DNA from: Amoebophrya sp. A120
Taxonomy: Eukaryota > Protista > Dinoflagellata
DNA: 64,000 nt
Direction of reading: 5' to 3'
Assembly: GCA_905178155.1 (NCBI GenBank)
Contig: CAJINV010000001.1
Span: 6,047,860-6,111,859 of the forward strand
In this document: positions 21,601-45,840 of the stretch, in pieces
Numbering within the stretch: the stretch's first letter is position 1
How the letters are laid out: each line of letters starts with the position of its first letter
Made by a program: the position numbers and the translations under genes
Notes under the pieces: generated by a model
Database searches by the model: none
What the model was told of the DNA's origin: nothing
What the model saw: only the letters and a program-made list of their open reading frames with translations

Positions 21601-24600
21601 AAAACTCTGACTGTCTGGGCCTAGCGGCTTCTTAGTACCAGGGAGGCGTGACAACCAGTCGTATTGTTTTTTGACTTTCCACTCCAAAGTTTTTCTGTAA
21701 ATGTAATATGAAGAGGCTTGATCTACTTTTCGCCTTGTCTTTATTGCGACAGCGACACAGAGATCGACACTGATGAAGCGGAAGGGCCGCCGCTCTTTCG
21801 CGGTGACCTATTTTCATCGCGATAATCGGACGAAGACTTTTCTCGGAGCCAGTTTGAAAGTGACTATTCAAAATGGCTATCTGAGTCCCTGCTCAACGTC
21901 CAAAATTTTTCCGTTGCGAATTTGGCGAAGTTGCGTCTGGACATCTACCAACTTGATTCGAATGTTGGAAGCGGAGATCTCACAGATTCTGCCTACACTA
22001 CGATTGCGGATAAATTCAATGGCATCGCAGAAAGGGTGCCAAGAAATGGGGTATTCAGTGCCAATGTGTCGTTGTCATCGCTGTAAGCTTTCATTCTGAT
22101 TCATTTTTATTTGCTAGAAGCACCTATGATTGAAGAACAAGAATCTCAATCTTCACTGGTTGTGAAGATCAAGATTCTTCACAGTCATAAAGAAAGAATG
22201 AGTGCTGCCGGCCGCGGAAAGGATACCTTCGGGGAATATTTAGTATTCATGTGGGTTGCCCTAAGTAACTTTTCGTTTTCGGACATAGTGACTGACTGCA
22301 AAGAGAAAGCACCAGCGGGCTTTGTAACTTGCGTACGAGATGTGTGCGTACAGGTACAGTATTTTACCTAGTCATGATCATCAGTGTGATTATCTTTCTA
22401 GCTATTTGTGGTCTTTTTCCGAAACACGAAACGCGTCAGCATTCCAATGCAATTATTCTTCGGTCGTGGTGCTCCCAGCGCAATCGATGACACACTTGCA
22501 CTGGATAGCGCGAAGCCTTGGGCCGCCGTATGGTCAAAGTTTGGAGAGACCTTATCAAGGCCAGCGATAGTGACCAGGTGGTATGGTCGTCCCATGATCC
22601 GCCTCATCAGAGCGAGTACAACTATGAGCTTGTAGCGTGCACGACGCTGACGCTCTGGGATGACACTGCCGACATGCTGCACGGCTCCGTTTGTGTTGAT
22701 ATCCGCGCGGCGCTCGATGTCAACCTCGACCGCCTGAACTGTTACACAAACCATTTTCGTGATTCAGTAACTGGAAAAATCATGCGCGCTCCATGCAATG
22801 GGAATGCCGGACAAGAGGCTACCGTGCGTGCAGAGACCTGTCAACAGCTTTCTGCTAAGCTGTCTGACGCGCAGTGGTTCCAGGTCAAGGTGACGGACAT
22901 TTTGCAGGGAGGAGAAAACGAACTAGCGTGGGAAACGAACTACTTCTTTCCCGAGGACGCTGCACTTATTTCGGAGTTGGAAGTGACGCGCCGTCTCGGT
23001 GAAGTCGGAAACGTAGGTGAATTCTGGGGCTCTTCGCTTCTATCGGCACTTCAGTACGCGGTGCTGGTCATTCCCTGTGAAGGCGATCCTGACCGCATGT
23101 GTGAGAAATGGGATTTCCCCGATCATTTGATACAGGATTCAGATGGCCGGTGGGTGCGACAATTTCGTACCACGATTCTCTGGGGGAACGAGTTTGACTG
23201 CGCCAAATTGATTCACCCATGGACGCCACGACCTCAGGGTAATGTCGATGTTGTGCCAGCAGTACCGATGTATTTCTACAAACGTGGAAAGCAATGGCCC
23301 AAAATACATCCCGCCCCGGATGCCAATACCCTGTCCATTCCTGACAAGGCGACGGTAGTGACTCCGATTCCTGGTAAGGGTAATCAAGCTCACCAATATT
23401 ATTGGGTTGACCCGAATGATCACAGCGGAACACATACTTTGACCGGTCGATCTGAAGACGATGAGCCTGATGGATTGGATTACGGAATGTGCACGGTGCT
23501 CCAGGCGAGTGCGGGCGCGGGAGGCGAGTACTGGGGCCTGCGGACCTCCATGTATCCGACTGAAAAACTACAACACACTACTACACGGAAATCCTAGAGC
23601 CACCGCGGAGCATATGCATCTGCGAATGCATGTTTTTCAACATCTCCATCAATCCCCTTGTGCTTTGTTTGAGCCGGACTAGACTCAAGTGTCTTTTTGT
23701 TGCTCATCCCGATCACGAATACCAAAGTAAGCGGCCAGGCGTAGAGAGAGAGATCCGAATGTATAATTGCATCAAGTATAGAAATCAATCGCATAATGAA
23801 CTTGAAATAAAGTAATGCGCTGTGATCATTTTGCACATTTATTTTGTACATTGCATCATGCTATCTCACTCTAAATAAGATAGCCTGCTTGCACAGACGT
23901 ACTCTGTGTTTGGAGGTGCTGATTGCACTACAATGTGAGGGTGTCCCCATGAAGATAGAGATGCTAGGCAAGTATTGCAGCAGTACGCGCTCCGGGTGGC
24001 AATTTCCCAGTGATACCAAGCGCCGTGGTGGAACACTACGTTAGTCCGGTGCTACCCCCCGTAAGCGTATGCCCTGTAAGCTGTAAGTGCTACAATGGCG
24101 AGGTTGACGCTGATGAGCAAGAGCAAACCTGCACGGTTATCCCTCAAAGGATGGGCATGTCTGCGTCTAGCTCTTGCGTAGACGTCGTTACGTATAGATT
24201 TTCTATGATGATGCGATAGTAGTGGAAGTTGTCCTGGCCTCCTCCGTGTTACATGGAAATAAGTCCTTGCCGCCGGCTTGTTCCGCGAACAAGGTGCAGT
24301 TGTCTCGTAGGCATGATAGGTTTCTTTGAGAGTGTGAATGCGATATTCTCTATATTCGCTGTGGTTTTTATAGTTTTACGTTTGTTTTGCGTATAAATGT
24401 AAATCTAAAACCGCGTCGTCCACTACTGCTTAGAGGAGAGGCAGACATGTACGTGTTTACTATCGATGGCTTGTGATGGGAAGCAAAATTGCTTGGCAGC
24501 GGGGTGCTTTGACGGTTACAAGCACAGGATCGACTGGCCGACGTCTGGCGAACGCGTTTGTTTTCCCGCTTGTGATGCGGGTGAAGAATCTGTGTCTTGC

Positions 24601-27600
24601 CCAGTTTCCACCGGTGATGCTGATCCGTACTACGTACGCGACGAAAACACGCGGAACGGCTACTGTACGCAGGTCACGGATCCTCTAAAAGCGCTGGCCG
24701 TAGGCGCAATGACGAATGCCGACAGTGACGCATACAAGAAATGTCAAGACAGCTGCTGCATACAGGTCTGCAAGAAGCCGCTCGACGCCACGCTCCAGTA
24801 CTATGACATTCCTTTTCCAAAAGTGTTCCACTTTTTTTAGGGCAGACCTTCTCTGCTTTGCTAGTCCAATGCGAATATTGCGCCCAACAAGTAGATTAGC
24901 TGGCACAGCGTGCGTTTCTCTCCTGTATGGTCTTCGCACAACGTCCACTGTAATTGTGTTGTGCCTTATGCGTTTCCGTGTCCTTCTGCATTAGGAATGG
25001 GTATAATTGTTGATGTCGTTTACGTTTTCGCTGTCCACTCTCAGGACAAAAGTTGGCAGTTGCAGCTTTGGTTCTATAGAGGACTAGTGTGCGGCGCTGC
25101 AATATAGGTGACGAGTGTGTTGAAGACGTAGGTACATTAGGGCGGCGGCACTGACAAGGTTTCTTATTTACAACTACAACAGGATGCTTCAGTTTTCCCG
25201 CGACTTGACAAACAATTTACCCGACTGGGAGACATTTCTGAAGCGCCCCGAAATGAGACCAGGCGCCGCTACTGGCGATTCGCCTTTATGCGACAAGATG
25301 CATTGCCCGTTACCGTACTCCTTCAGATATCCCGGCTTGTTTTATTCGTTTTTGTGCAGCACAGACGCGGAGCACAAACAGCGCAGTGTCTGTTCGATTT
25401 TACACGGATAACGTGAGTTTGGATACGGCCATGCGTTGGCTTAGCCTGTACGTGACTCTTCAATATCAAGTGCATATACGGTTACGGTCTTACATTGGAA
25501 AAATCCGAAACAAATTTATAAACTTATGTTCACCGTAACGGTTTGCAATAGGGCTAATGGATATTTGAGTATGGTAGAGGGAATCTTGTTGTCGCGTTGA
25601 TATGTATTCGTTTTTCCGGACGGGGGTGTGGCGTGTAACTCGAACTACAATACGGCCGAAACGCCTGGGTTTTATTGCCCCCTAGCTGGAGTGCCTGCGG
25701 TCTTGGTAGGATGCGGGAAGGAGTGCGTATGCAATAATGGAGAGGACGCGGACGCGAGCACCTGCGAGGGTATCCACTGCATGTGACGTATTTGGGACCG
25801 GGATAAACCTAAACGGGCATGCTGTGTTGCACTTATAGTTACTCTGTATGATCTTGGTCTTTCATAGTACTCGTTCGCGTATAATAAACGCCCTCCCGTT
25901 TTTTGGGACGTGTACTCAGTATTTTTTTCTACGCGGATGAATGTTTGATATATGATTTTGGCTCTGTAATTTGGATTTGCAACGTGCAACAAAGTCGCGC
26001 GTCTCGTCTGCTTTTGCAAGCGCTTCTGCTTATCTGTGCGTGCTGTGACTCAGATCAGATCCCTTGCCACAGTCACAAGTTGACTTGTTTTCTGGGGTGA
26101 TCTTCAGACAATCGAGCTGCACTAGTTTTTTCCAAAAACTTTATCCCTGACCCAGCAACGAGTTTCCCGTTCCATAGCTGGACACGGCAAGCAAAACTGC
26201 AAGGAGAACGGTTGCTACGCGGGCTACAAGTACAAGGACAATTGGCCGACTCAAGGTCAACGGGGCTGTTTCCCGTCCTGTGTAGATGATGCCGGAAGCG
26301 AGTTTTCTTGTCAGTCGAGTGCCTCCTCCGCGGCAGATCCGCATTACATCTGGGCCGGAGAATCAAGCTATTGTGCTGACATCCCAAGCCAGTCTCCATT
26401 AACGCTCGCGCTAGCGGCGAATGGCATGGCATCAGAAATCAGCGAGACGTATCAGAAATGTCGGGACAGCTGCTGCATACAGGGCTGCAAGGCTCCGTCA
26501 AGCTCGAGCGAGACGATGAAGTACTACTCATTCTTAACGTTCTCGTCGTATGTGATTTTCGGAACTTCTTTCTTTGGCCCACGATATCGCTAAGCTCCTC
26601 CACAGTGGGACGGAATAAATGGTCTATGTATATGTCATGGTGGATATGGTGTGAGAACTGTGTTCGTGACACCAGAAGATATCTATGTATGTACACAAGA
26701 AATGCCGATGTACTAAAAAAGTCTTGTGCGAATATTAGTACGATGACGATCCGATAGCTTCTCCTCTGAGTTGGCTACTGGACTGGGAGGACCGCAGTGA
26801 ATAGAGCATCGATTATCGTGGAGCCCTTGGTCTAAGTTTAAGTAGGAGAATATGAAAGTCATGCCAAAGCAGGCAAAGCAAGAAAGAAAATGAAAAACAT
26901 AAGTAATTGACAACTGCTTACAGGAAAATCGACGTGCCAGAAACCTTCGCATGGGAGCCGTACCTCATTCGCGACGAGATGAAGCCGACGGGGAGCACTG
27001 ATGGTGCCTTATCGCATTGACAACATGGGCGTTCTCCTTTGTCGAATAACCAACTCTGCGTGTGCATGCAGTACGACTGGCAGCCGTTCTATACACCGAT
27101 TGTGACTCCGTGCCTGTCATGAAGATAGACATAAAGAAACAAGAATGCATGATGAAATAACTTTTGTTCAGCTGTGGCAAAATCTGGTAACCAAGAAATG
27201 AATGCATGCGCGCGCGCGCAGAGTCCCACGCCGGCCCACGAAGGTATTGGACTTTTGAAGGAGGTGGACACATGTTGTCAAATGGATACGCGATGACATT
27301 GGTTGGTATAACTTGCAAGCCTGAATACGATCAAGTTTCGCAGCCGAAGTTTTACTGCCCCGGGGGCGGACAAGAGGTGAGCTTGGTAGGCTGCGACCAG
27401 AGCTGCGAGTGCAACAACGGACAACTTGACCGAGCGCCGAACACGTGCACGGGTATCCACAGATATTTAAAAAAGTGCCTGTGTCTGGAAAATGAGTGCC
27501 GCGATTGGTATGTCATCTCGTCATGTGCGATCTACTGTCTGTTTCATGAATATGATTTTGTTTTCGCTCTAGTCTACTGCTACTATCAATGAACAAGAAC

Positions 27601-30600
27601 CGCAGGCGAGAAGTAGCCACGCCATGGAAAGTACAGAATCGATAAACGCGGTTTTTCTTGGACGGCCCGCCATGCTGGTTGGAGTGGCGCTGCAGCATCA
27701 TGCCTAGAAGAGCCCAATAACAGGTTTAGAAGAACCACGAATCTTGTTTGATGAAATTGATCCCCAGGCCGGCGGTTTAGAATCGCATGTACGAGGCGTT
27801 CAGCTCATCGACAAGGATTCGGCACAATATGTTGAGACTACAATAACGAGGGGTACTAAAAGTTAAAGGCGCACTCATGTTTCCCATTCCTGGTAAACCA
27901 CTTTTCCCATCCACATTCCTATCCGGCGATTACGGAGGTAACCAGAACTGTCTGGTAACTGGGTGTAACTCTGGCTACAAGCACAGGACCGAGTGGCCGT
28001 CGGCCGGTAGCCGAGGTTGCTACCCCGCCTGCGATGTTGACGGCTTCCATGTTGCCTGTCCTTTACCAGAAACTGCGTCCGACCCATATTGGATACCAAA
28101 AGAATCGGTCAGTGGTGACCGGGGTCTCTGTGCGATTTCGACGGATGAAGAAGCTCTGGCAGAGAACGGGATGCAACCAGAACACGATACCTACAAGCAG
28201 TGTCAGCAAAGCTGCTGCACGCAGGGCTGCGCCAGGCCGTCGAGCGCTACGGAGCGGTATAGTTGATTTCTGATCGTTCTGTTGTAGTACAGTACTTACT
28301 GCGTTGCCCTTACCGGCGCGTCTGGTGCGAACACGACGCCGAGCGGGTGACAAGTTGAATTTATCGCTTTTTTCAGTCGTTTAGTTGCGTTACTTCGTTC
28401 CGCCTCCAGGAGATGCGCAGGCACAGCATAATGGAAGGATTGGCAGACGTCACGTAAAAATTTCAGACAAGCTATATGAAAGATAAAACCACGGTTACAA
28501 CAGGATGATCGAGATTGCAGCACCTGCAAGCGGCGGCGATCCTTGGGAGGATTTTCTTACGTCATCCCAAATGCAGCCTGGCATGACTGCTGATTCTGCA
28601 ATATGCTGTCGATAAACACGGTTTATTTCATTGATGACCTGCACCAGTACCTGTACCAGTAACATCAGCATCGGCATCACACACTTGTTGCAAATCTAAG
28701 ACCTCCGCTACTGGAATAGTACATATGCGTACCACGACGTAGCTGGTTCTAGTTCTACTTTTCAGTGTTGGAGGAGGTTCGTTATGTAGGATGTGTCTCT
28801 CAACGAGGGTGGACGAAGGCGCTCCCTCGTCTCTTGTGTGCTGGGGACCAACCCTTGAGGCGTCCTGCTTTTTTCAAGAGAAGCATGTGCTGCCAAATAA
28901 AAGTAAAACAGAATTCAAAGTCTGAGTCTATGCAGACACCGAAATTGATCCAGCTAGGCACCACTGTCGTGCTGCGACGCACGTAGAAATAAACCGGGTT
29001 TTGTCTAGCCGATACGCAAGGGACCTGCAAGTGCAAGGCGGGAACGTAACCTGTGCTGCCGGCTTCGTTGGAACGCCTAAATATTTCTGCCAGAACGCCG
29101 GGAGCCCGGTGAGCATGACGGGATGCAGTCAGATATCACATTACAATAACATGCCTTCCTCACGCGAATTTGTATATTTGTCTTGCTGTAACTGTATGGT
29201 ATTCGTATTTCGTTGTGAGAGTGATAGAAAATAATAATAAAGAGCGCTCTCCTCGACGTCATGCTTCAGACGATGATGATCTTACTAGCTGTAGCTCCGT
29301 GGTAATGCAAGAAGCAAGCGCGTAAGGTCGGCTTTACTTTTCCTTTTGAAACGGGAAGGTTATGGAGGTGACGACGACGACAACGACCAGTACTACGACA
29401 ACCGTGACGAACGCCACGGAGGCGGTCGTGGGGGGCGGGCTGAATGCCCCGGCGGTCGCGGGCGGGTGTGGTGCTCTCGCCCTGCTGCTCTTGCTGGCCC
29501 TGGTGCTCTGCGTCTGCGGTTGCGGCAGCACGGTCGGGGCCGAGGAGGAAGAGGTCAAGGACCGGGACTGGGTCACGGCCCAGTGGGGCTACAGCTCCGA
29601 CATCGACGAGGAGCCCCTGGTATGAAATGCAAAAATGTCTGGGTCTGGAAGATTGCCAGGCTTGTCATGCGTATTTTGAATGATCCAGGATGTCTGTGAT
29701 GCGTGCCATAGCATCACATATTTTTAGAGGACTTTATGTTGCCTCTACCGCATGAGAAATGCCCTCTTCGCGTAGCACAAACTGGAGTCCTCCTGCTGGT
29801 CATGCAATACAAATTTTTTTAGAATCCAGCGACAGCATTACAAGTTTAGAATCTTCCAGACCCAGACATTTTTGCAATCCATACCTGGACGAGGCCGAGG
29901 AGGACATCAAGAAGGCGTTGGTCGCTGCAGGTCTCAGTGCGGGCTACGCGGACAAACTGACAAAGAAGCTGCTGGGATCCGACCCCAAATCCAAGCGCCT
30001 CAAGGCCCCGTCCGACGACAAAGATTCGCGGGCCATGCGCGACCTCGGTTTCGACTTCGACCTTATCACTTTGACGAAAACTAGAACTACATCCGACGGC
30101 TGCGTTTGCATTTCCATTTCGATTTCCAGTCGAAATGTCTTATTTGCAGCAGAGGAACAAATGCAGTTTCTTCGTCTTCCTTCTGGTTGGGTCTGGACGA
30201 TGTCGATGATATTTCATGAGTTCCACCTCGTCATCGGGATGATTCCATCTTGGGTAGGCATTTTGAATTTGCTGCAACTAAAACTTCTGATCGCCTTTTC
30301 ATTTCTCTGAAGCACATACTGATTATGTTGCATTGTTCATGAACAAGTGTCATCGTCAGAAAACTGATTGATACTTATTGACCGTTGCTTTTGGGCAAGC
30401 GGAAGATCATGCAAATGCAGCAAAAGTTAAAGCGCCGGATCTTTTGTTTTCAACGTGATAAAATTTGGCGACGTCGAGGTGGGGGTGGTGCGGGGAATCT
30501 TCCGCAAGGCCCTGGCCAAGCGGCGGAAGAAGGACATCCAAGCAGCGTTGACGGACGCGGGGGCAAGTTCCGAGTACGCCGCTGAGGTCGCCAAGCAGGT

Positions 30601-33600
30601 CACTGGTTGGAAAAAGAAGAAGAAAGTGAAGAAGCCGAGCCGGCCGGAGGACCTGCGCGCGATGGAGCAGCTCGGGGTGGATTTTGGGGGCCCTGTGGAG
30701 TTTGCCGCCCTGCGTCAGCTCCTGCAGAGCGCCGTGACTAAAGGTGGACGCAAGACGCCGCTCGGGCGGGAGGCCCTGCTCGACTACCGGGACGAGTGCG
30801 CTTCCGCGGAAGCCGCCCTGCTGGCCGCGGGCCTCTCGCCGGCCGGCGCACGGCGGGTAGCGCAGTACATCGCCGGACCCTTCGTGGACACCGAGCCCGT
30901 GCCCGCTGACCTAAGTGACGTGGACAAAGAGGCGCTCAGCGCTTTCGTTGGCTATCCACCGCACCACCTTCTGTGCTGTCGCTTGTGCAGCAATTATACG
31001 TTGTGGTCAAAGCAGGCGAATGAATATGAAACCCATCACGCTACTTGGATCTTTCTACCAGAATGTTCATGTTTCTTTTTCAAAAGTGAGCGTGAACCAT
31101 GCCAATATCGCTATAGCCATGCAAAATATAATAATCCATGCATTTTTAGAAAAATGCCGCTGAGCTGACCGCAGGGAAGGTTTTGCATTGCATAACTTTG
31201 GCGAGGTGTTGATGATTGGTGCCGTGCGCGAAGTGCTGCGGCAGGCGGAGAGGAAGAAGCGGGGTGGGGCCGGCAAGGACCTGCACGGCGGATTAGATCT
31301 GTTTGACTTCAGCGCCGTCGAGACCGCACTGCTGGACGCGGGGCTGTATCCTGAGTAAAAACGTACCCACACCAGAGTTGTCATGCGACTTTGCCATGAC
31401 AGGAACATTTGTGATGCGCAACCCCATGACAGGCATTTTCAATCGTGTTTGGGAACTTGTAATGCTGTAAACAGGATCAGCAGATCGATTTGTGATGCGG
31501 CTTTCCTTGCTAACTTGCACTACCTTACGGACTGAAACTTGTCATGCGTGACTCACAAAGCTCCTAGGTTTGTGTTGCAAAATCCCCATCCTGACTCTGG
31601 TGTGGGTACGTTTTTACTCAGGATAGCCTGTCGCGCGGGTTCAGTAAGAAGATGGCCGCCCAGATTACGGACCGCGGCGCGCGAGACGACGACCCGCTGG
31701 TGAGCACCGACGACGCGGCGGACCTGGAGGTGCTGCGGAAGTTGGGGCTCGACCTTGCCAAGGGCGAGACGGTGGGGCACATGCGCGGGTTCCTGGACGC
31801 CTTCGCCCACCACCACGACGACGACGGGGGCCTCGGGGGCGATTTGTCGGCGCTGACCCTGGACGAACTGCAGTTCCGCCTGGAAACCGCGGGGTTTTCG
31901 CAAAAGATGTCCTTGTTCGTGGCCAAAAAGATGCACAAGAAGGCCAAGTATCAAGTGTAAAAATGTCTGGGTCTGGAAACTTGTGATGCTGGGTGGCGTC
32001 TCATGGTGAGGCTACGCATGCTGGCTCAGCATGACAAGTTTCTCAGTTCCTAGGTCTTTCCTATTCTGCATGACAAACTGCGCTTCTGCATCACAGAAAA
32101 ACGGAACTCTTGGGTAACGTGCATGACAGATTTAAGAGTCATGCCAGACAAGCATGTTGCCAGACAGAGGATCCGTAGCCATTTTGGCTCAAGATCCTTA
32201 ATATACCAACCCCTGCCCCGGTGGTGGGGGGGATCCTCTGAGCACAGTTAATTTTTCCGACAGCGGCCCTTTGTGTGGGAGTGAGTAGTCGTAGACCATT
32301 AGCCTTTACAGATTGCATTAGTTTAGAGGCCCGACGTAGTCATTAGGTTTCCTCGACCTTTTTCGTTTTTGCTTATCTTATTTCCTCCTCTATTCATTCG
32401 CATTCTTTTCTCCTGATCTGCAGTAGAGCTGCGACCCTCGCGTCTGTGTGCTCCTGCTCATTTTGAAAAAATGCCCTGACAAGCACAGCATGGACCTCGG
32501 GGCAACGCGCAACACGATCGGAGGCGGGCGATTCGCTGCCGTCGTCGATTAAAAGGCCTGTCACCACACGCGGCCCTGCACAATTCCCAGCACGGGCGGA
32601 GTCGGACGCTTTCGGGGAGACACCTCTGGCGCAGGGTCCGCGCAACAGCAGATTTCGCATAGCGCATCACGGGATGCGGGCGGGCGCCGGAGCTAGGGCC
32701 GTAGTGTAGTATACAGGTATTTTTAGGGGGTTTAAGTATGGGTGTCCTCCTCTTCTTGTGTGCTTGCATGTGAAACTTCTTCGTAGTATCTCCTTCTCTC
32801 TTTCATTCAATCGGGCGGTCTGCTACTCTGTTGTTGTGTGCACGGGGGCGGAGCAGGTCCGTCCCCGCCGTTGCCTCAATTGAACCACAGGCGTCCGCTC
32901 TTTCTGTGGATCCTGGAAGATATGGTTGTCGCACAAGATTCGGCTGCGTCGTCTCCGCATCTCTCCCTCCCCCAGAATCCAGGGCAGACCTGATAGTCTG
33001 TGCGCGTAAAGTCCCTGCTGTGACTCTAGCGGCACCCCTGATAGAGTGTGTGTGGATTCTGGGCATTTGCGCACAGGACGGAGGCCCAGCAACGCAGGTC
33101 AGGACGGGACCACAGGACCTTCGGGCGGCTTCGCGGGTACTCCCAATAGGCTTACGGTAGTGGAGTCGGGGGGCTGTTGGACGATAGTCGAGCTGATGAC
33201 TGTCCGGCGATGCCTCGGGGCCGAGCCGTGTGTACGAGCGGAAGCGAGTGCCGACCAACAGGAACGTGTGGCGTTGGATTCCGCAAGCGAGATGATGAGC
33301 GTTTCTCGCCGCCTTCGGTGTTGGCGACGGGTCTGGATGCTGGGTTCCCTAAGTTCCCCCTTCTCGTGGCCGTTCTGGTGCGCCTTCTCATGTGAGGTCG
33401 TTGACAAGGCTTGGTGGGAAATTCCCGTTGCGCGAGGCTCTTGCCTTGCCCTCTGTCTTCGTCCCCAGCGGTGTTGTGGCAGTAGAAGCGTCTGATGTGG
33501 CCGTCGGAGCTTGCTCTGGGTCTTGCGGCTCCTCTCGTCTTCGGTGGAGTACCTGAGTGGCTTCTTCTGCTGCCTCCGTTGACTTCTGGTTGCTGCTTGA

Positions 33601-36245
33601 CTGGCGGTTGGGAACACTTCAGGCGTCTTTGTGCTGTGCTTCGGCCGCGTGGTCCCCGGTGTTCCCCGGGTCCGGAACTCTGGGTTACCTTGGTCGAGTT
33701 GGTGTCACTGTCGGTTCACCTATGTCCCTGCCTTTCTGTTCTTGCCACTGGGAACAGTCTGTGCGTTTCTTTCGTCAGCGGCTTCCTGGCGCTGGAGCTC
33801 GTTGACGATTGTTTCGGGAGGTTCCTAACGGCCCCTGAGGACATTGCCCCGTTGCCGACCAGGTCGAACTTAGAGGTCGGCTTCGGGAAGATTTTCCGGA
33901 GTTGAGTCTGCTTCGGCAGGTCTCTTGTGAAGGCGAGGGCAGTGGTTGGCTGAGGTTGTTGGAGCGTTCCATAGTGTCGCTCCAGATCATTTTTGATCCT
34001 TCTCCAACTTCCTCATTTCCTGTGTGGTCTAATGCAGATTGCAGATCACAATACAGGGCCACCCTCGTCTCTCACCTCCAGGGGGGGCGCGCGGACCTCG
34101 CTTGCCATCTTGTTTGGTCTCGCGAAAGTTCCAGTCCCCCCGAGTGGGAATCGGGAATAGTAAAGTGCCAGACAAGCATGACAAACATGAATTCTTCCAG
34201 ACCCAGACATTTTTACAGTTGATACCAAGGCGGGCCAGTCGGTCGACCTCACCGAGGACGAGATCCGCGAGATCGAGCTGCAGTGCGAAGAAACCTTCGA
34301 CTATCACAGTGAAAAGTGCCCCCCACCCCCAAAGTTGCAAAAATTTCTGATGCGAAGTTTCCAAATGAAAACTTTTTGTCATGCATGAAAGGAATATGAA
34401 TCTTGCTGATGCAGATTCTAGGGCGGGTGTGTCGCATCGCTTGCACGACAAGCACTGCTCTCGTTGGGATCTTTTCCAATACAAATTTTTGCTATTCACG
34501 ATCGGAAATCTGTGATGCTGATGCATGCAAGAGGGCGAGTGTTTCATTTGGAAAGGTTTGCAATACAAATGCTTTCAAGTTCGGGGGTGGGGGCATTTTT
34601 CATTGCAATATCGACGTGGAGAGGTTTCGGGGCATCACCGAGAAAGCGAGCACAGTCGTGGGGTTCCAAAAGGGCGGGGTCGCCCGCAAGGGCAAAAAGA
34701 TCAACCTGCAGCGGGCGCTGTCCTCGCCGAAACTGGTGGAAAGCGCGTGGAAAAAAATCAAGCGGAAGAAGGCGAAGCACGCGAGGAAAAGCGACAAGGC
34801 TGGTGTAGCTTCCGATGTGTCGACGGCCAGCGAGGAAGCGGCCGCGATTGGCGCGCGCGCCAGCAATGTGAAGAAGCCGAAGAAGGAAAAGACCAAGTGG
34901 CAGAACGAGCTGGAGGAGGAGGCGGCCGCCGCGCTGGAGGAGGTCGGGTTCTCGAAGAAGCAAGCTTTTTACCTCGCGGAGAAGATTGCGGCCACCGACG
35001 CGGACACCGTGACCCCCGAATTCATGAAGCTCACGGACGAGGAGCGCCGGATCGCCTGCAAGGGGCTTGGCGGCATCGCGGTCGTTGACCTCGAGGGCCT
35101 CGTGGACGAGCTCGTGGAGCAAAAAGCCGACTTTTTCACGAAAACGCTGTCGCTATGGAAGGCAAGAACTCTCCTTCTAGCACGGACCGGATTCCAAATT
35201 GAAATCATGTGTCAAGTTGCAAGTTCGGATGAAGGCATGGCGCTGCACCTGCATGTTTGTCACAAATTCGCGTTCCACTTGCATACTTACTACACGCAAG
35301 TTAAGTACTTACTTGATTTTCATGAGCACTAAGGGTAAGAAGGATCGTTGGATTTGAAATGTCAATTCGCATGTCTCGGGTAATGATGGATAGATTAATA
35401 TACTGATTGGCGCGTTTTTTCAAAGTGCGCTTTGTACACAGCAGCAAAGGCATTGGCAGGCAAGAGAAACTTGGATGTCGGGACGTGTTTGTATTCCATA
35501 GGTTCCAGAGTCCTACGGGGAGATTAACAAATCGCAGGAGATGGGCCAACCTGGTTCCGTCTTTCACAGTCGTGTGCACAAATCGAGTAAAAAGAAGGTG
35601 CACCACAACAATATCACACGAAAACTGCAACAAGGAGTCCGTCACTCCTGAAGAAGTGATTGAATCGCCAAAAATGCAGAATTCACTCGCTTATTTTCTA
35701 CTTCTACAACTTCGTTTCCGTGCGGCATTGTAAAGAAACCGTTTCAAAACCAAAGAAATATTGGGATTGCTATGCTCTACAACTTTTGCATGCGTGATAT
35801 TAATGCAGAACGATTATCATGAAAGGTCGTCGAAAACGAAACGAAAATGCTGTGATTGACTTCCTCGTAGTAGGTTTTCATGTGGACCACACAGAAGCCC
35901 CATCCCAAGAGCGGAGCCCCAGGAGCGGACAGGAAGAGCAAACGGAGCGTCGTGCACATAAAATCCAACACGACTGCCGCATCCGCTTTGAGTTCGGGGG
36001 CTTTTTTTGACCATAAGGATGCAGGCAAGCCCTCCACTTTGACGAGTGGGGGAGAAGTCAGTGAGCCCTCTTCTCATGGGCGCAAGGCGAAGAGTAGCCG
36101 CATGAAATCCAAGCAATCCGAGGCCGGCTCTTCCGAAGGTGATTCCGGCTCCTCCAGCCACCCCGGCAGCGAAAAGGGGCATCACAAGGCCAAGAAGAAG
36201 CACCCGAAGAGCGGACATGGGCATCCGAAATCAAAACCACATTAG
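18688..36245 (+). CDS. Paralogue 4: alpha2delta-like vWA ectodomain, about 3 tandem Cys-rich repeats, Thr-rich stalk, TM, 6 cytoplasmic repeats; heavily fragmented by introns
   Basis: Signal peptide MKTGKKIILPALLAFGPLVQFLLL; ADLGFASVVLEP; KNVLLVLDRSYSM; TM GALALLLLLALVLCVCGCG (29470-29525). Downstream exons join via introner removal into paralogue-matching sequence (EEPLDEAEEDIKKAL, DAGLSRGFSKK, KKAKAGQSVDL, TFDVERF, TLSPESYGE). Exon boundaries in 23.5-29.3 kb and the last exon are approximate. Confidence 0.7.
19978..20636. mobile_element. Introner-type intron containing internal hairpins
   Basis: tatcgaatgcaaatagtat...atattatttgctgaggata. Element+5 nt removal gives LEPPRLTRTKVTTKSEQAVVRWP in frame. 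Confidence 0.75.
21288..21824. mobile_element. Introner-type intron
   Basis: tatgcgatgaaaaa...ttttcatcgcgata. Element+5 nt removal gives VMT(D/N)EDFS, matching paralogue IMTDEDYS. Confidence 0.75.
22052..22507. mobile_element. Introner-type intron
   Basis: tattcagtgccaatgtgtc...gacacacttgcactggata inverted ends. Element+5 nt removal is in frame with ORF 22518. Confidence 0.75.
24070..29130 (+). repeat. About 3 tandem Cys-rich coding repeats (approx. 1.7 kb genomic period including introns)
   Basis: Module A: GKQNCLAAGCFDGYKHRIDWP (24478), GKQNCKENGCYAGYKYKDNWP (26186), GNQNCLVTGCNSGYKHRTEWP (27937). Module B: C...P.FYCP..G..V.LVGC...C.CNNG (25622, 27301, and partial at 29040). Confidence 0.85.
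29621..29883. mobile_element. Introner family A (TIR core aaaaatgtctgggtctggaa), TSD cctgg
   Basis: tatgaaatgcaaaaatgtctgggtctggaag...cttccagacccagacatttttgcaatccata flanked by cctgg on both sides. Removal gives EEPLDEAEEDI. Confidence 0.92.
30063..30461. mobile_element. Non-canonical intron with ttatcac...gtgataa ends
   Basis: Short inverted ends. Removal gives DLGFDFDQFGDVEVGVVRG. No clear TSD; exact boundaries uncertain. Confidence 0.55.
30953..31194. mobile_element. Degenerate introner-type intron
   Basis: tatccaccgcaccaccttc...gaaggttttgcattgcata. Element+5 nt removal is in frame to GEVLMIGAVRE. Confidence 0.65.
31347..31625. mobile_element. Introner family B (perfect >=31-bp TIR), TSD ggctg/gcctg
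   Basis: tatcctgagtaaaaacgtacccacaccagag...ctctggtgtgggtacgtttttactcaggata. Homologous along its length to 56534-56805. Removal gives DAGLSRGFSKK. Confidence 0.95.
32157..34165. mobile_element. Nested retro-type insertion (approx. 2.0 kb) with 15-bp TSD, starting with a spliced leader
   Basis: tgccagacaagcatg occurs at 32142-32156 and 34166-34180, but only once in the uninterrupted family-A copy. No recognisable RT or transposase ORF and no poly(A). Confidence 0.8.
32172..32193 (+). other. Intact dinoflagellate spliced-leader (DinoSL) sequence
   Basis: tccgtagccattttggctcaag matches the established DinoSL DCCGTAGCCATTTTGGCTCAAG at 22/22. It is not followed by GT, so it is not an SL RNA gene. 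Confidence 0.95.
34302..34610. mobile_element. Introner, TSD tcgac
   Basis: tatcacagtgaaaagtgccccccacccc...ggggtgggggcatttttcattgcaata with perfect tcgac flanks. Removal gives EETFDVERFRG. Confidence 0.9.
35154..35500. mobile_element. Introner-type intron (degenerate TSD)
   Basis: tatggaaggcaag...gtttgtattccata. Element+5 nt removal gives TLSPESYGEINKSQEMGQPGSVFHSR, matching paralogue TLSPESQESAGKARESGQPVSFFHSR. Confidence 0.8.
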
Positions 36246-37697
36246 TAGATCTTAAACGACGATCCTGACTAGAAGTAGAACACGACGCATGCATCGCGCA
36301 GAGCGATGCAGAAATAATACAAGAAGCAGAAGATGACGCAGGAGAACGCAAACACATATCAGACCGGCGCTGCAATGAAAAAAACACGTTTTCCCATAAA
36401 TTTTTCTTGACCCTAGTACGTAAATTTGTTAGTTTGACATCGAAAACGAAATCAGATACAGATCCCCATTCTTCAGAGCTCCCCTACCCCATTCCATGTG
36501 TCGCATACGCATGTTTGCGCACAGTATGAAGCAGAGTTGCATTTTTTTTTATTTTTCTGGAGTATTAACTACATCGGTTGCGGTACCGGGAAGCTGTTTC
36601 GACCTGCCGTGCTACAGTTGCGGCCCTCGCCGTAGTCTGCGCAGAGTTGAACTCGGCTTCGATACCTTCCAAAATTCATTTTTTTTTTATCTGCATCTTC
36701 CTCACTCTGACTCTCTGTCTCTTGTAAACACTGCAAGCACCACCACCACTAGCGTTTTGTCAAACGATAAATTCAAAATGTTACCGAAAGTTACAACGAA
36801 ACTTACCTTTCACGCACCACTCCCGCAAGCCAAGTTTCATCCTTGAGTTTGTGAGTCTGAGCACTATGTTTCGTTAACGCCCCGACGTATGCAAATGAAG
36901 GCACGTTGAAGTCCCCTGTTCTTTTTCAAGTAGCCCACGGAAAAACAGAGCCAATTCATTGAACTGACCTTCCCCAGTACAGCGACCCCCGTTGAATTTT
37001 CAGCTAATCTGTTGCAATCGGCCTTCGCGTGCTCGCTTTCGCAAGGGAAGCTGAAGTTTTTCTTCGATTCCCCGCCTGTCAGCGAAAGTGGCGTTTTGAA
37101 AGTAGTTCGCCACGAAGATCATGTGTGATGTTTTGCCTTTTGGCTTAGCAACGCAGTTGAATTTATTTGCGTGAATGAAAATAAGAGAGCTAAGCAGAGT
37201 GAGAAGACAAAACGGCGCAACTTTTTTTTTCGGTTTCATGAAACAAAAACAAAAAGGCTAAAATCCGCAAGAATTAAGTAAGTGAGTAGAAGTACGCAAT
37301 GAGTGCAGAATGAAAAAAAAGCGTTTATGATTGTGAGGTCGCAGAGCGAGAGGCGAGTCGATGAAGTAGCCGAGCGTGGAGCACTTTCCAAGATGGGCTT
37401 TGCCAATGCCATCTTCAATCTTCTTCCTCCAAATAAATGAACTGACTTCCAGTGAGAAACACGACCCCTCTAACACAACAAAACGACGATTGGATTCCAA
37501 AGCGTTCATTTTCATCCCAATAGATAACAGGATTTTACTCCCGCTGCATACTAGTAGTCAAGAGCACGTCGCCTATTTGAGTGCTTTTGCAACAGTATAG
37601 AAAATTTGAAGCAACTACTTCTGGTAAATTTCTGAGCAGCTCGTATAAGAAGTTACAGTCCTACCCATTCCTACCCATAAGAATCAAGAGGAAAACA

Positions 37698-40619
37698 ATG
37701 TTGCGGCTTCATCACGCAGTACAAAAGGCTGCCTCGGTTGGCCGGGTAGAACAAGATGCTGTCAACAAGGACTTGCACTTGGTGCAGGTGGTCCCCCCAT
37801 CGGTGGCCCCACCAGCTGCAGTGCCTCTCGCTTCTCCGTTGCAGAAGCACCTGGTGTTGGTGGTGGACGTCTCTGGGTCGATGGGGACCGCTGTCGCGGC
37901 GGTGAACGAAAGCGGCGAGAAGGAAAACCACGGCTACTCGATCCTCGACTTGGTGAAGCACTCCCTGCTCACCGTGATTCAGAGCCTGGCCTTTGATGAA
38001 GAAAGCGAAGAAAATGAAGGCCGTCAAGAACCGCAGGGCTACTTTGAATACCAGCTGTCGCTGATCACGTTCACGCGCACGGCCTCGGTGGTGTTTTCGA
38101 AGCTCTCACTGCGGAATGCGGCCGCGAAGAAACGGGCCGAGGAGGCGGTGGCGCAGTTGCGGCCCGAATCCACGACCAACCTGTGGGCCGGCCTGAAGTT
38201 GGCGGTCGACCGGATCCTCCTGCCTGCGAACTCCGCGGACGAGAATTATCAGGGGGACGAAGACGACGCGGCCTCCACCACCACCGGGTCCAGCTCCGTG
38301 CGAGGAGGACCGACGACGACGACGACCGTTTCGGACGAGCCCGATGCGGAGCCGGGAGTGCTGCCAGCGGCCGCACGGAGGATGAATCTCAGGTTGCAGG
38401 AGCGCAACGCCGGTTCAGGTGCAACTGCCGGCACGACGACCCCGTATGAAGATCTGCTTGCAGCAAACACCAGCACGGAAGTGTGGGTGTTCACGGATGG
38501 CCAGCCGAACCAGGTGCCGCCGCAGGGACACGTGAAGACGCTCGAAACGTACCTCGAAAAGAAGAAGCTGCCCCAGACCGCCTTCACACTGCGCACCTTC
38601 GGGTTCGGCTACTGTCTGGACGCGAAATTGCTGGAGGATTTGGCCAAATTCGGCAACGGATCCTTCTGCTTTATCCCGGACGGGTCCTTCGTGGGCACGG
38701 TGTTTATCCACGCTCTGGCGTCCCTGCAAAACACGGTGCCGGCGCGGGCGCTGACCTTGCGCGCGCACGTGCTGCAACAGGGCGAAGCAGGCAAATTTGT
38801 GGCCGGCCCGCGCGGGGACGAGAACCACGTCGTTCTGCTCAACGTCCTCGGTGCGAAGGGGTTGCACGATGTGTCTCGGCGGGGGTACTTGGTCCCGAAC
38901 GACGGCGGGCGTGCGATGGAGATGTCTGTCCCGCTTGGGAGCACGCTGGAATACGGCCAGAGTCGCGAACTGGTGTTCGAAATCCCGCACGGAGTCACGT
39001 GCACCTTCTCGCTCGAGTACTTCGACCTTCGCACTATGCAGCCGGTCACGTGCCAAACTACGTGGTCCTCGTCCACGCAGGAGCCTCCTGTCGTGACGAA
39101 CGAGCCGGTCGCGCTGTTTCAGCATGCCCGCGCCCGGTTGCTGGCCGTGGACGCGTTGGATTACCTGGTCAACGAGGGTCTTCCGGGCTTCGGTGTAGAA
39201 AGCGGAAATCCCTCGTCCTTCGGCGGCACTGCAGGTGTCTCCAGTGGGCGCACTCCGACGCTGGAGCAGAAAGCAGCCTGTGTTGCCGACACGGTGCGCG
39301 ACATCAAGACGAATATTCTCGCGCAGTCGAACGGCGATGATGACGTGGTTCTTCCACTGCTGCAGGACCTTGAGGGCCAGGTTGCGGAGGCGGTTTCCCG
39401 CCAGGACTGGTTCAAACGCTGGGGCGAGTACTACCTGCGGAGTCTCAAGTTCGCCCACGTGTTGCAGAAGCGCAACAACTTCAAGGACCCGGGCGTGCAG
39501 GGTTACGGCAAGATCGCGCTTCCTGTTCTACTTGTTTCGGGCGACGTTGAGCAAGGGGTTCGTAGTACAACCTCCGCGTTCGACGGGCTGGTGGAGCGCG
39601 TGACGGACGTGTTCGTGAACCAGGTGGAGGCGCCGAAGCCGAGCAAGACGTACGATTCCTCTGCGCACTCCGGCCCGATCTCCATGGCGGCGTACAACAA
39701 CGCCCGCGGACCCTGCTTCACGCCGGACTGCCTCGTCCAGCTGTTCGACGGGTCTCTGGTGCGCGTGGACCAGGTGGCGAAGGGCATGTATGTGCGGTCG
39801 GGTTTGCAGCACCTGCCCATGCGGGTCAAATGCGTGGTGGAGACCGCGGGGCCGGGCATGAAAATCCTGCGCTTCGGGAAGCAGCTGAACAACCTCGGAG
39901 TCACGCCCTACCACCCGGTTTGCGTTTCGGCGGACGAGCTGCGGCAGATTGGGGCGACCTCCACGCCGCGCTCGGTCGCGAGTGACTCCACGACGTCGAC
40001 GGTGGCAGACCTTGACGCTGACGTTGAAATTAAAACCGTGGTTTCCGAACAACAGACCGAGGCCGTTGTAGCTACCCCGATGTTGAACAACGACCGCACG
40101 TGGGTGTTTCCGATCGATTTGGTTTCCAAAATGAACAACGCCGACAAGAGTACAGCTTCTTTCTTGTCCAGGTACAACAACCTCGAGCATGTTTTGACTG
40201 TGACGGATGAGACGAGTCATGACGTTGTCTACAATTTTATCCTCGAACGCCCGGGCAGCTCCGCCTTTGGCTCGGACAACAAGGTTTCTGTGCCTTTGTC
40301 TCCCTCGGCCACAACCAACGCGCCGGCTCCGCGAACTCCGCTCCGCACGTTGGGAGGTGAAGAGGCTGATGACAAGAACGGGGAAAAAAGCCAAGAAGAT
40401 CACACGATTGTCGTGAATGGAATTGTCACGTGCACCCTCGGACACGGACTGACGACGAACGAAAAGATCCAGCACCCGTATTTCGGGGACATGACGAAAG
40501 TTCTGACCGACTTTTCGCACATGCAGGGCTTCCAAGAAAAGGGTGTAGTCCGCCTGAATGCGCAGACCTGCTGCGTAAAGGACGCTAAATCGGGTCTTGT
40601 GGTCAGAATGGTGCAGTAA
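37698..40619 (+). CDS. Vint protein (vWA + Vwaint + Hint domain), intronless
   Basis: vWA: LVLVVDVSGSM, VFTDGQPN, TFGFGY.LD. Vwaint: GQVAEAVSRQDWFKRWGEYYLRSLKFAHVLQKRNNFKDPGVQGYG. Hint: GP|CFTPDCLV, VTPYHPV, WVFP, VYNFILE, IVVNGIVTCTLGHG, HPYFG. Confidence 0.9.
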   Translation: MLRLHHAVQKAASVGRVEQDAVNKDLHLVQVVPPSVAPPAAVPLASPLQKHLVLVVDVSGSMGTAVAAVNESGEKENHGYSILDLVKHSLLTVIQSLAFDEESEENEGRQEPQGYFEYQLSLITFTRTASVVFSKLSLRNAAAKKRAEEAVAQLRPESTTNLWAGLKLAVDRILLPANSADENYQGDEDDAASTTTGSSSVRGGPTTTTTVSDEPDAEPGVLPAAARRMNLRLQERNAGSGATAGTTTPYEDLLAANTSTEVWVFTDGQPNQVPPQGHVKTLETYLEKKKLPQTAFTLRTFGFGYCLDAKLLEDLAKFGNGSFCFIPDGSFVGTVFIHALASLQNTVPARALTLRAHVLQQGEAGKFVAGPRGDENHVVLLNVLGAKGLHDVSRRGYLVPNDGGRAMEMSVPLGSTLEYGQSRELVFEIPHGVTCTFSLEYFDLRTMQPVTCQTTWSSSTQEPPVVTNEPVALFQHARARLLAVDALDYLVNEGLPGFGVESGNPSSFGGTAGVSSGRTPTLEQKAACVADTVRDIKTNILAQSNGDDDVVLPLLQDLEGQVAEAVSRQDWFKRWGEYYLRSLKFAHVLQKRNNFKDPGVQGYGKIALPVLLVSGDVEQGVRSTTSAFDGLVERVTDVFVNQVEAPKPSKTYDSSAHSGPISMAAYNNARGPCFTPDCLVQLFDGSLVRVDQVAKGMYVRSGLQHLPMRVKCVVETAGPGMKILRFGKQLNNLGVTPYHPVCVSADELRQIGATSTPRSVASDSTTSTVADLDADVEIKTVVSEQQTEAVVATPMLNNDRTWVFPIDLVSKMNNADKSTASFLSRYNNLEHVLTVTDETSHDVVYNFILERPGSSAFGSDNKVSVPLSPSATTNAPAPRTPLRTLGGEEADDKNGEKSQEDHTIVVNGIVTCTLGHGLTTNEKIQHPYFGDMTKVLTDFSHMQGFQEKGVVRLNAQTCCVKDAKSGLVVRMVQ

Positions 40620-41977: not shown

Positions 41978-43510
41978 ATGCTTCAGCGTGCTTCCACTCT
42001 ATTCCTGGAAAGTGATTTTTCCTCGGAGACAAATGCAACATGCCGCGGGGCCACGATCTTCGATACTATGTGGTCGACGTTCTCGTTCATAGGCAAAGGA
42101 GCAAATACCGGAGGCGGATTTTGTTCCGGGGTATTAGGACATCATCAAGACGAAAAATTACATCAGCTGGTGCAGGAGCATCATTTTCATTACCCCAACG
42201 TCGGGACAAAGTCCTTCGGAAAAAGAAGCGTAAGGACAGCGTTTCCGCCGGCGGAAGACGGTAGTTGTCGGAAGGCCGGGGCTATCAACTGTAAAAATGT
42301 CTGGGTCTGGAAGAATTCATGTTTGTCATGCTTGTCTGGCATGATGACTCTTAAATCTGTCATGGACGTTACCCAAGAGCTCCGCTTTTCTGTGATGCAG
42401 AGCCGCAGTTTGTCATGCTGAAGAGGCAACACCTAGGAGCTCAGAAACTTGTCATGCTGAGCCAGTATTCGTAGCCTCATTATGAGACGCCACCCAGCAT
42501 CACAAGTTTCCAGACCCAGACATGTTTACATTTGATAGGGGCGACAAACTCCTGCTTGTTGAAGGTCGTGCCAGGAGATTTTTTATCAACTGCAAATGTG
42601 TCTGGGTCTGGAAGAATGCAAGACTTGTCATGCTAGTCTGGCATGACTCCGCACTCTGTATTGCGTGGCCATGCAAAAACGCAGTTTCTCATGCGGAATA
42701 CGCAACACAGAAGCACGAAAAAACTTCTCATGCTTGGCTGCGCATTACAGTTCACTTTATTGTTCACTGACTTGCATCGCAAGTTTCCAGACCCAGACAT
42801 ATTTGCAATGCATGTTTTTATGAGGTAAACGGGATTCCGGACGTCCACGACGAAGTGGTCAAAACAGAGTATGAAACGCTCGTTAGCTGGAAAAATCTCA
42901 AACGGAACAATACCTGCTTCCATGACAGGCTGCAAGTGCAAAGTAACTCTAGTTTGTATTCTTTCTACTACTCAACCCTGCAGCTACTTTGCAAGACAGA
43001 CAATTTTCGACCGATATCAGTGCAGATGCGGTTTCTTTAGAGTTCCATGTTAGGGTTGACCATGTCATGCTAAACTAACAAGAACATAACGCGTACATTG
43101 CGACTACCGAGATCATCATGATGCGCATAATTTTCCCGGATCGCAATCACAAAAACAAATTGTTCTAGTTTAGAAATGGCTCCCTTTGACGAGCAGGCCA
43201 TACAAGCATCTGCGTGCCGCCTGGGCGAGTGGCCGAATACCAAAATTGGATGGACCAGACTCCTGAGTGGCGCGCGGCGAAGCGCAAGGCGCGCGAAGAC
43301 GCCGAGTTGCGACGGAAGCAGGAGGAGTGGAACGCATTGACGAAGGAGGAAAAGAATGAACGCGTGCAGCTCGCGAGGTTCGAAGCGGAAAAGGCCGCCA
43401 AGAGTCAGAGCAGCGACGACAAAAAGGAGGACCCTTTGGAGGTAATTAAAAAGAAGCTCAAAATAAAAATGTTTTCCGAAATGAAAAATGTCCGCTGTGC
43501 AAACTACTAA
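41978..43510 (+). CDS. Hypothetical protein with C-terminal charged helical region (multi-exon)
   Basis: Removing two introners gives a continuous frame: GSCRKAGATNSCLLKVVPGDFYEVNGIPDVHDEVVKTEYETLVSW. A probable GT-AG intron leads to the last exon RVAEYQNWMDQTPEWRAAKRK. Start and last junction uncertain. Confidence 0.55.
42283..42537. mobile_element. Introner family A, TSD ggggc
   Basis: tatcaactgtaaaaatgtctgggtctggaa...ttccagacccagacatgtttacatttgata with ggggc on both flanks. Confidence 0.93.
42584..42814. mobile_element. Introner family A variant, TSD ttttt
   Basis: tatcaactgcaaatgtgtctgggtctggaa...ttccagacccagacatatttgcaatgcatg with ttttt on both flanks. Frame is restored (PGDFYEV). Confidence 0.88.
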
Positions 43511-44158: not shown

Positions 44159-45840
44159 ATGTCGTCGGCGATCTTGAAGCAGGTGGAGAGCCTGCTCCAG
44201 CCAGGCGAGCGAATCGTGACCGACGCCGAGCGAGAGGCGCAGGACAACGAGAGGAAGGCTGCGGCAGCCGCACCAAAGCGAATTTTCGACGTTCCTGCGA
44301 TCCATGGGATATGAACTGCAAAAGTATCGTACTAGTAGTAATTGCAATACAAATTCGCTCAACATGACAAATGGGCTTTGTCATGCTGATTTGCCTTAGG
44401 AACGAAATTTGTAATGCATGACTGCGATTACTACAACACGTGTACGATACTTTTGCAGAGCATATGGGAAGCTCGAGGAAATTCGGTACAAGCCAGCACC
44501 TAATACGAAGCACGTTCCATGTATGGAAGTGTCAGAATCGAAATTGACAAAATCGAAAAACTTGTGATGCATAAAATCGATACCAGTTGGAGCCTCAGTT
44601 TGCAAGCGGCGCATGACAAATTTCGGGAGCACCCAAATCCAGTCTGTCATGCTGTTTGGGCAAAGAAGACTGCTCCTGTCATGCTACTCTGGCAGCGCAT
44701 TGCATACTCCTAAACAGGCTTACAATCGGTCTCATTTGCCTGCTCCCCAATACAGGCCTCCAGTGCCCTACATTTTATGCATCACAGATCTTTCGACTTT
44801 GTCGATTTCGATCCTGACACATCCATACCATGGGTCGAGACCTTAGCAATCACCGCTGCAAAACCCCTGGACAAGACCCTGGTCAGCGAAGATGTAAAGC
44901 GGGAGCAGGCCTTTCTCGAGCAAAGTACAATTTTTTTCTGCGGTGAAGTTGTCTAGATTTTTTGCATAACTTGGAACAAGAAGTTTTTTCCTGCATTTAC
45001 TGTCATTGTGCAGCACCAGGCCATTAGGCCAATCTGAATTATTTTCAAAAGTGACAACTGACAAGGACAACGCATTTGATTTCTTTCTGTTCTCTCCAGG
45101 CAAAGAGCTGGTCGCAGAGGGGTACCGAAGACTCCGGGTAATGAAGATTCCAGCGTCTAGGCCAGAGGACTTCCTCGCAGAAATGTTCAAAACCGACGAG
45201 CAGATGCTGAAGGTGCGCAGCCGCATTGTGGAGGAGCAGAAACGCATCACCGGCGTGGAGGAGCGAAAACGCAACCAGGCCAACGCTAAGTTCGGAAAGG
45301 CCGTCGGCGTCAAGCGCATGGAAGCCCGGGCAAAACAGAAAAAGGCGACCTTGGAAGGAATCGAGAAATGGAAGTACAGTCTAGCTACTGATATGTTCTT
45401 CTACACACAGCACATTTTTTTATGCGTACACATGGGTTGCTGTTGCTGAACTAAAAGTTTTATCACAACCAGAACCGCTGCCACCAGAAGGCAGTGTAGT
45501 GCATCCATTTTGAAAAGTAAGTACTGGCGGCAGCAGCACATGCAGCCTGTAGATGAGATTTTCTATCGAGGAAACCACTCGTAATCTTAAAACTCACAGG
45601 TCCGACAAGGGAAAGGAATCCAAGTCTATCGAAGAGGTAATAGATGGCGTCAAGGCGAAACAGCGGAAGTCTGAAAAGAAGGGAAAAGGCAAGGGAAAGG
45701 GCGGAAAGGGTGCATCATCAGGAGCTAAGGGAGGAAAGGGCAAGGGTAAGGGCAAGGGCAAGGGCAAGGGCAAGAGCGGATCCAAGGGTAAGAAGGGAGG
45801 AGGCAAAAAAGGCAAAGGACGGGCAACGAAGAAGCGCTAA
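44159..45840 (+). CDS. EBP2: rRNA-processing protein EBP2 homologue (multi-exon)
   Basis: Spliced: AIHGKLEEIRY...VPWVETLAIT...DVKREQAF...RPEDFLAEMFKTDEQMLKVRSRIVEEQKRI...KFGKAV...KKATLEGIEKWK, then a Lys/Gly-rich tail. These are characteristic Ebp2 motifs. Confidence 0.9.
44310..44464. mobile_element. Introner, TSD tggga
   Basis: tatgaactgcaaaagtatcgtac...gtacgatacttttgcagagcata with perfect tggga flanks, inside EBP2. Confidence 0.92.
44522..44827. mobile_element. Introner, TSD ccatg
   Basis: tatggaagtgtcagaatcgaaattgacaaaatcgaaa...tttcgactttgtcgatttcgatcctgacacatccata with perfect ccatg flanks. Removal restores the conserved PWVE motif. Confidence 0.93.

Follow-up and report, generated by a model that had tools for sequence, protein, structure and literature searches.

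The 64,000-nt stretch of the Amoebophrya sp. A120 genome analysed here (contig CAJINV010000001.1, positions 6,047,860 to 6,111,859 of the forward strand), referred to as the window, contains an insert of about 2 kb that begins with a complete dinoflagellate spliced leader (DinoSL; SL for spliced leader) and lies inside an introner of a protein-coding gene (Table 1). The exons flanking the insert match the A120 gene GSA120T00003276001, which aligns in 22 pieces with 90-100% identity. The terminal inverted repeats (TIRs) of the introner are 31 nt long and both are intact, and its 5' start, TAT followed by seven letters and As, matches the description of A120 introners in section 11 of PMC7789003. 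There is a paralogous introner at 42283-42537 on the minus strand (92% alike) in which the 15-mer that flanks the insert occurs once and which is otherwise colinear with both introner halves. Because the 15-mer is single in this empty paralogue, its two copies around the insert are a true target-site duplication. Both the duplication and the nesting within an introner had been proposed in an earlier reading of the DNA from its letters alone (the sequence-only reading), and both hold.

Table 1. Features of the insert, its host introner and the flanking exons (positions in the window)
Feature	Position	Strand	Remarks
Upstream host exon	31628-31947	+	Residues 2084-2190 of GSA120T00003276001, 100% identity
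Host introner, left part	31948-32156	+	TIR 31948-31978; own CAA direct repeat (3 bp) 31945-31947
Target-site duplication, left copy, TGCCAGACAAGCATG	32142-32156	+	15 bp; repeat and paralogue comparison
5' junction filler	32157-32171	+	T, partial re-copy of target, letters complementary to 32231-32240
Complete 22-nt DinoSL	32172-32193	+	Perfect; followed by ATCC, not GT
Conserved head, common to the L001 element	32194-32265	+	72 nt; identical over the first 24 nt; each copy can form the stem-loop
Pyrimidine tract ending CAG (acceptor-like by sequence)	32360-32423	+	Similar tract at same distance in L001
96-nt stretch	32969-33064	both	1 difference in 5,662-nt relative; folding z -4.0 (plus), -4.8 (minus)
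Single-locus-depth stretch	33212-33291		Relatives diverge near 33292
3' part, multi-copy, T-rich, non-coding	33292-34165	+	No poly(A) end; hairpin in last 100 nt, z -2.0
Target-site duplication, right copy, TGCCAGACAAGCATG	34166-34180	+	15 bp; repeat and paralogue comparison
Host introner, right part	34166-34225	+	TIR 34195-34225; CAA repeat 34226-34228
Downstream host exon	34229-34301	+	Protein alignment to A120 gene

The A120 gene model skips the whole 2.28-kb intron, joining at residue 2190 from 31948 to 34227. Additionally, an RNA-like contig of 8,643 nt from the public run X3 matches the host exons without any difference and leaves a gap of 72 nt, which is the exactly spliced form, although the contig does not establish whether the cells it came from carry the insert. 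Within that limit, these results agree with the earlier suggestion that the insert sits in a splice-protected site. Raw RNA run X10 gave 91 reads, all of them on the introner TIR, with none on the insert and none on the host exons either, and is uninformative.

The left duplication is followed by a short filler and then by the perfect DinoSL. The 21-nt core of the leader has a single match in the window at up to 3 mismatches, and none of 100 shuffles gave one. The composition of the filler and its partial copy of the target are as first described, and its last letters (GAGGA) are explained by the insert itself: the end of the filler, taken with the first three letters of the SL, matches 32231-32240 within the insert perfectly in inverted orientation over 10 nt. 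There are no long terminal repeats (LTRs) or TIRs at the ends of the insert, the longest word common to both ends being 9 nt direct and 8 nt inverted. The insert contains no long internal repeat and has no second match within the window.

A second element with the same beginning was found on a public metagenome contig, L001, the sole exact match to a 30-nt pattern among the metagenome contigs scanned. Its SL begins at position 2328 and, counted from SL base 1, it agrees with the window copy letter for letter over 46 nt and is 85% identical over 94 nt; beyond this head the body is unrelated at both the DNA and the protein level. The L001 element is 1,538 bp long, has a 5-bp duplication (TGTCA) and lies in an introner of another family, of which there is an empty paralogue in the window at 44517-44833. 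In both elements the SL runs in the same direction as the neighbouring host reading frame, is followed by ATCC with no GT or GC in either copy, and precedes a pyrimidine tract ending in CAG some 215-250 nt in. A stem-loop can be drawn in the head of which 18 of 19 pairs are kept in both copies, the one change being from G-U to G-C on the plus strand, a weak comparison with two sequences only; the head of L001 folds better than its shuffles (z -3.3) and that of the window copy does not (z -0.3). Rfam gave 0 matches in 31900-34400 and in L001 at E up to 5. A hairpin of a G run and a C run stands shortly before the 3' junction in each element (34066-34165 in the window, 3766-3865 in L001), in sequences that are not alignable. 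Elsewhere on L001, positions 5400-6700 stand out from the remainder of the contig as an AT-rich stretch containing short repeats. Pattern scans of viral contigs gave 0, 2 and 0 hits and a scan of genome contigs gave 11 bacterial hits; at these 13 loci the matches reach at most 23 nt and were dropped as chance. A likeness of the head to U5 or to a U12-type donor was unsupported and was dropped as well.

Further copies were sought in public runs; the comparison covers 4 of 12 runs, and its figures are for contigs among those listed. Run X1, which may be the source data of the window, has four contigs identical to the window copy at depth 28-34, and its contigs with 0 differences cover 32207-32998 and 33022-33391. 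It also has variant contigs of 33416-33636 at depth 143 and of 33662-34110 at depth 231, and a contig over 32207-32424 that is 93% alike at depth 20. Depth along the insert, which is a rough guide to copy number only, is uneven in X1: about 2-fold in the head, 5-8-fold in the 3' part and single in one stretch (bin 33212-33318, at single-locus depth). A 1,570-nt contig of run X3, with 54 differences, crosses the same 3' junction to 34185 into introner sequence, and it leaves the window copy at 33292 for 666 further letters. A longer X3 contig of 5,662 nt has the 96-nt stretch with 1 difference and continues for about 4.4 kb on the 3' side. By this comparison of sequences, a deletion or rearrangement point is likely at about 33292. 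In an X3 contig at depth 36.6, the last 15 letters before the SL are those of window positions 32135-32149, which places the SL 8 nt, not 15, into the same target; the 5,662-nt contig likely carries this junction, since it has the same depth value of 36.6. Finally, a plankton metagenome contig has 33571-33886 with 12 differences. The SL-side junctions are therefore at 15 nt (window), likely 8 nt (X3) and 5 nt (L001), whereas the far junction is identical in 2 of 2 copies, a pattern based on three left junctions, two right junctions and contig depth.

The insert has no convincing sense open reading frame (ORF), as had been stated, and its longest stop-to-stop frame (201 aa) is on the minus strand. 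A codon model made from the host exons gives the insert a low score. The sequence-only reading had proposed a comparison with reverse transcriptase (RT), restriction-like endonuclease (RLE) and Penelope profiles. Pfam gave nothing below E 0.1 for 13 insert frames and nothing for 3 frames of the L001 insert. Homologue searches with 32823-33098(-) and 33716-34012(-), confined to longer proteins, gave 0 matches, and two Atlas searches gave no usable match. A full HMMER scan gave one match, to a trypanosomatid repeat protein in which 29 residues were matched six times, and this was rejected as chance. Every one of the six frames of the high-depth variant of 33662-34110 is broken by 2-6 stops. The zinc-finger-like ORF proposed on the minus strand has no protein support; its frame grows from 91 to only 116 codons when insertions and deletions from other copies are applied, and it lies within the 96-nt stretch, where the folding is better than in any of 200 shuffles, whichever strand is taken. 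Going by this predicted folding, the stretch is better read as a structured nucleic-acid signal. None of the frames has a codon bias in its variant letters (6-8 of 26 silent), which says little for a decayed copy.

Taken together, the data suggest, with a probability of about 0.63, that the insert is one of a small family of SL-headed retroposons in introners, that it is non-coding, non-autonomous and likely internally deleted, and that it arrived by target-primed reverse transcription with an enzyme acting in trans. In its features it resembles a non-autonomous non-LTR retroposon, and it is probably not a member of CRE/NeSL, a normal SL gene or a retrogene. To judge by its sequence relatives, it belongs to a family and is not a one-off event: of the two options first offered, a mobile family with an SL end is favoured by L001 and the divergent contigs, and a single retrocopy is not. 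The SL-side junctions vary while one far junction is fixed, there are more copies of the far end, the filler has the form of a fold-back and the element ends at SL base 1, and these features all fit reverse transcription of a plus-strand RNA that began at the 3' end and ran up to the cap. Variable 5' sides with a constant 3' junction have been described for non-LTR insertions (PMC4640811, PMC2881922), as have template jumps at the 5' junction (PMC2881922).

The template would be a plus-strand, SL-capped RNA served by an enzyme supplied in trans. A first nick would set the 3' junction at 34165|34166, and synthesis of cDNA would run to the cap, so that the whole SL is copied. The cDNA end would then fold back and jump to the target, making the filler, and a second nick 15 nt downstream would give the 15-bp duplication. 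Copies would lie in sense in spliced introners and be co-transcribed with their host genes, and SL trans-splicing, not a promoter or ribozyme within the element, would supply their 5' end. A longer element likely gave rise to the window copy by deletion, and the 5.7-kb relative may be the autonomous partner. As for targeting, two or three copies share a motif within a single type of introner, and in each fully read element (n=2) one of the junctions falls in the middle of CATG within GTCATGC. CATG is common in these introners (7 occurrences in 255 nt, 5 in 317 nt), so targeting of CATG or a preference for introners is no more than suggested.

Several points weigh against this reading. No RT or endonuclease was found in the window copy, in L001 or by the protein searches. 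There is no poly(A) or short-repeat tail, as already noted in the sequence-only reading (the longest A run in the last 60 nt of the insert is 3), and a 3' tail is usual, not universal, in non-LTR retroposons (PMC2881922). Genomic SLs that are re-transcribed usually gain a new SL at an internal AG and so leave a tandem relic (PMC12014239); 0 of 3 heads have one, which trans-splicing in every cycle must explain. The pattern scan returned L001 as a single hit, the third copy was deduced from a gap table and a matching depth value, and copy number is read from contig depth. No listed contig spans the left junction of the window copy, and X1 depth is 0 at 32161-32170. On the minus strand, a frame-hopping path over 33100-34134 scores weakly as coding, a score reached by 3 of 200 shuffles, which is possibly a decayed antisense ORF or a captured exon, and the 96-nt stretch folds slightly better on that strand.

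The leader itself may have come from trans-splicing onto a master copy with a plain AG, from re-splicing at the last AG of the SL in each cycle, or from transcription of an SL gene. We also consider, tentatively and with more doubt than confidence, a promoterless lineage in introners that would be co-transcribed within its host intron, freed and capped by SL addition, copied to the cap and landed again at a set motif in other introners. If true, a mobile intron would serve as a safe harbour, and the SL would take the role that the hepatitis delta virus (HDV) ribozyme has in R2 and L1Tc.

On another account, which we regard as unlikely, an SL-capped non-coding transcript was retrocopied by chance into introners once or twice, and DNA transposition of the loaded introners then spread the copies passively. 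This account would suit the two intact introner TIRs and the one relative with the same 3' junction. Published A120 data include TIR-flanked introners with retroelement homology and near-identical copies (PMC12130899), and introners make up 17% of the A120 assembly (PMC7789003), so insertions there are not rare. However, passive spread of whole units does not sit well with the uneven depth along the insert, with the relative that has a different SL-side junction, or with L001, where the same head has another body in another introner family.

An origin of the SL from an SL RNA gene has a similarly low probability. Here the SL and head would be a non-canonical SL gene carried in mobile units, or a CRE/NeSL-like element behind an SL exon would have carried that exon off-target. 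According to Farhat et al. (PMC7789003), each Amoebophrya genome has a single complete DinoSL, which they called the SL gene; the head is conserved and pairs with the 3' part of the SL; and there is a T5 run at 32251-32256. CRE and NeSL target SL exons (PMC3636483), and more than 60% of introns in the Amoebophrya genome have non-canonical ends (PMC7789003). On the other side, neither GT nor GC follows the SL in either copy, and with one SL in 64 kb there is no tandem array, so the locus does not look like the fragment of an ordinary SL RNA gene array that had been envisaged as the refuting case. Linkage to 5S or small nuclear RNA genes was not seen in the Rfam searches, the T run is absent from L001, and both ends of both elements lie within introners.

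It is very unlikely that the element belongs to the minus strand, with a decayed ORF from about 34134 and an RNA whose 3' end is the antisense SL, a recognition tail common to different families. Partner elements often have 3' ends in common, the minus strand is A-rich with an ATG 31 nt from the junction, and the weak coding score and the better folding of the 96-nt stretch are on this strand. However, in all copies the RNA would have to end precisely at SL base 1, and there would have to be more 5' than 3' copies with a variable 3' and a fixed 5' junction, the opposite of target-primed insertion; additionally, there is no protein homologue, and the high-depth variant has stops in all frames. 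An assembly or cDNA chimera, to which the unspanned left junction would point, is the least probable of all given the exact 15-bp duplication against the empty paralogue, the X1 contigs with 0 differences (from what may be the window's own source data) and an independent assembly, L001, with the same head and its own duplication.

There are tandem paralogues in the window, at 4222-9435, 12250-17484 and 18574-36242 on the plus strand, with C-terminal domains common to the host gene and weak VWA matches. The long frames of the first two are unbroken, whereas about 20 introns interrupt the host gene. At 37581-40616 (+) there is a 1,012-codon open frame with VWA, Vwaint and Vint (Hint) domains, and 13647-13816 has exact tandem repeats of 66 nt. 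Non-LTR elements have been reported in the Amoebophrya genome (PMC7789003). Among 22 of 58 A120 rows in one dataset of PMC12130899, the families fam12 and fam16 are short TIR introners of about 250-305 bp with rows that reach 4,410 and 7,143 and matches to Gypsy or to the long interspersed nuclear element (LINE) I-Jockey; retroelements nested in introners would explain these long rows. Five short patterns of the insert occurred in none of the searched dataset files of that study.

Dinoflagellate genomes are rich in reverse-transcribed mRNAs and, to our knowledge, the element that supplies the enzyme for this has not been pinned down. A family in which SL-capped RNA is copied as far as the cap points directly to that enzyme. 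If our reading of the insert as an SL-headed retroposon is true, it would be an example of trans-splicing defining the end of a mobile element, with introners as the landing site. In the literature searched, which left most subscription papers outside, we found no description of elements whose genomic copies end in an SL. The single SL gene annotated in this genome may itself be such an element; if the 'single complete DinoSL' is a head of this kind, the true Amoebophrya SL RNA gene is still missing or lacks a GT donor.

Among known systems, CRE/SLACS/CZAR and NeSL (PMC3636483, PMC4640811) are non-LTR elements tied to SL sequence, and CRE makes duplications. As described there, however, they insert in SL genes and encode RT and RLE, whereas here the SL is the end of the element and the target is an introner; the link to CRE, SLACS and NeSL noted in the sequence-only reading does not amount to membership on this evidence. 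The relic-SL retrogenes of dinoflagellates (PMC12014239) are likewise DNA copies of SL-capped RNA, but the insert has no ORF and no tandem relic of the kind reported for them, no parent gene was seen, and it has several divergent copies with a common head. In Hydra, host SLs are found on transposable element RNAs (about 30% of the long reads from such elements; PMC12220107), on RNA reads rather than at the genomic terminus of element copies. Penelope-like elements differ from the insert, which has no pseudo-LTR repeat, no hammerhead match in Rfam and no match to RT with GIY-YIG in Pfam. Some non-LTR elements insert into another transposon, Tx1L with Tx1D reportedly being an example. This target class (PMC4640811, PMC8869645) resembles the present case in that a multi-copy, non-autonomous DNA transposon is the landing site; in contrast, the landing site here doubles as a spliced intron, an endonuclease is not known and the specificity rests on two or three copies. 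Finally, NARTc/RIME/SIDER with L1Tc/ingi carry the signature Pr77, which is a promoter and an HDV-like ribozyme, unlike the SL-headed elements, which start with the SL, lie in introners and gave no ribozyme in Rfam. The likeness lies in the arrangement: a structured 5' signature of similar length stands on different bodies in a trans-splicing protist, and the short non-coding members depend on a LINE (PMC3383444).
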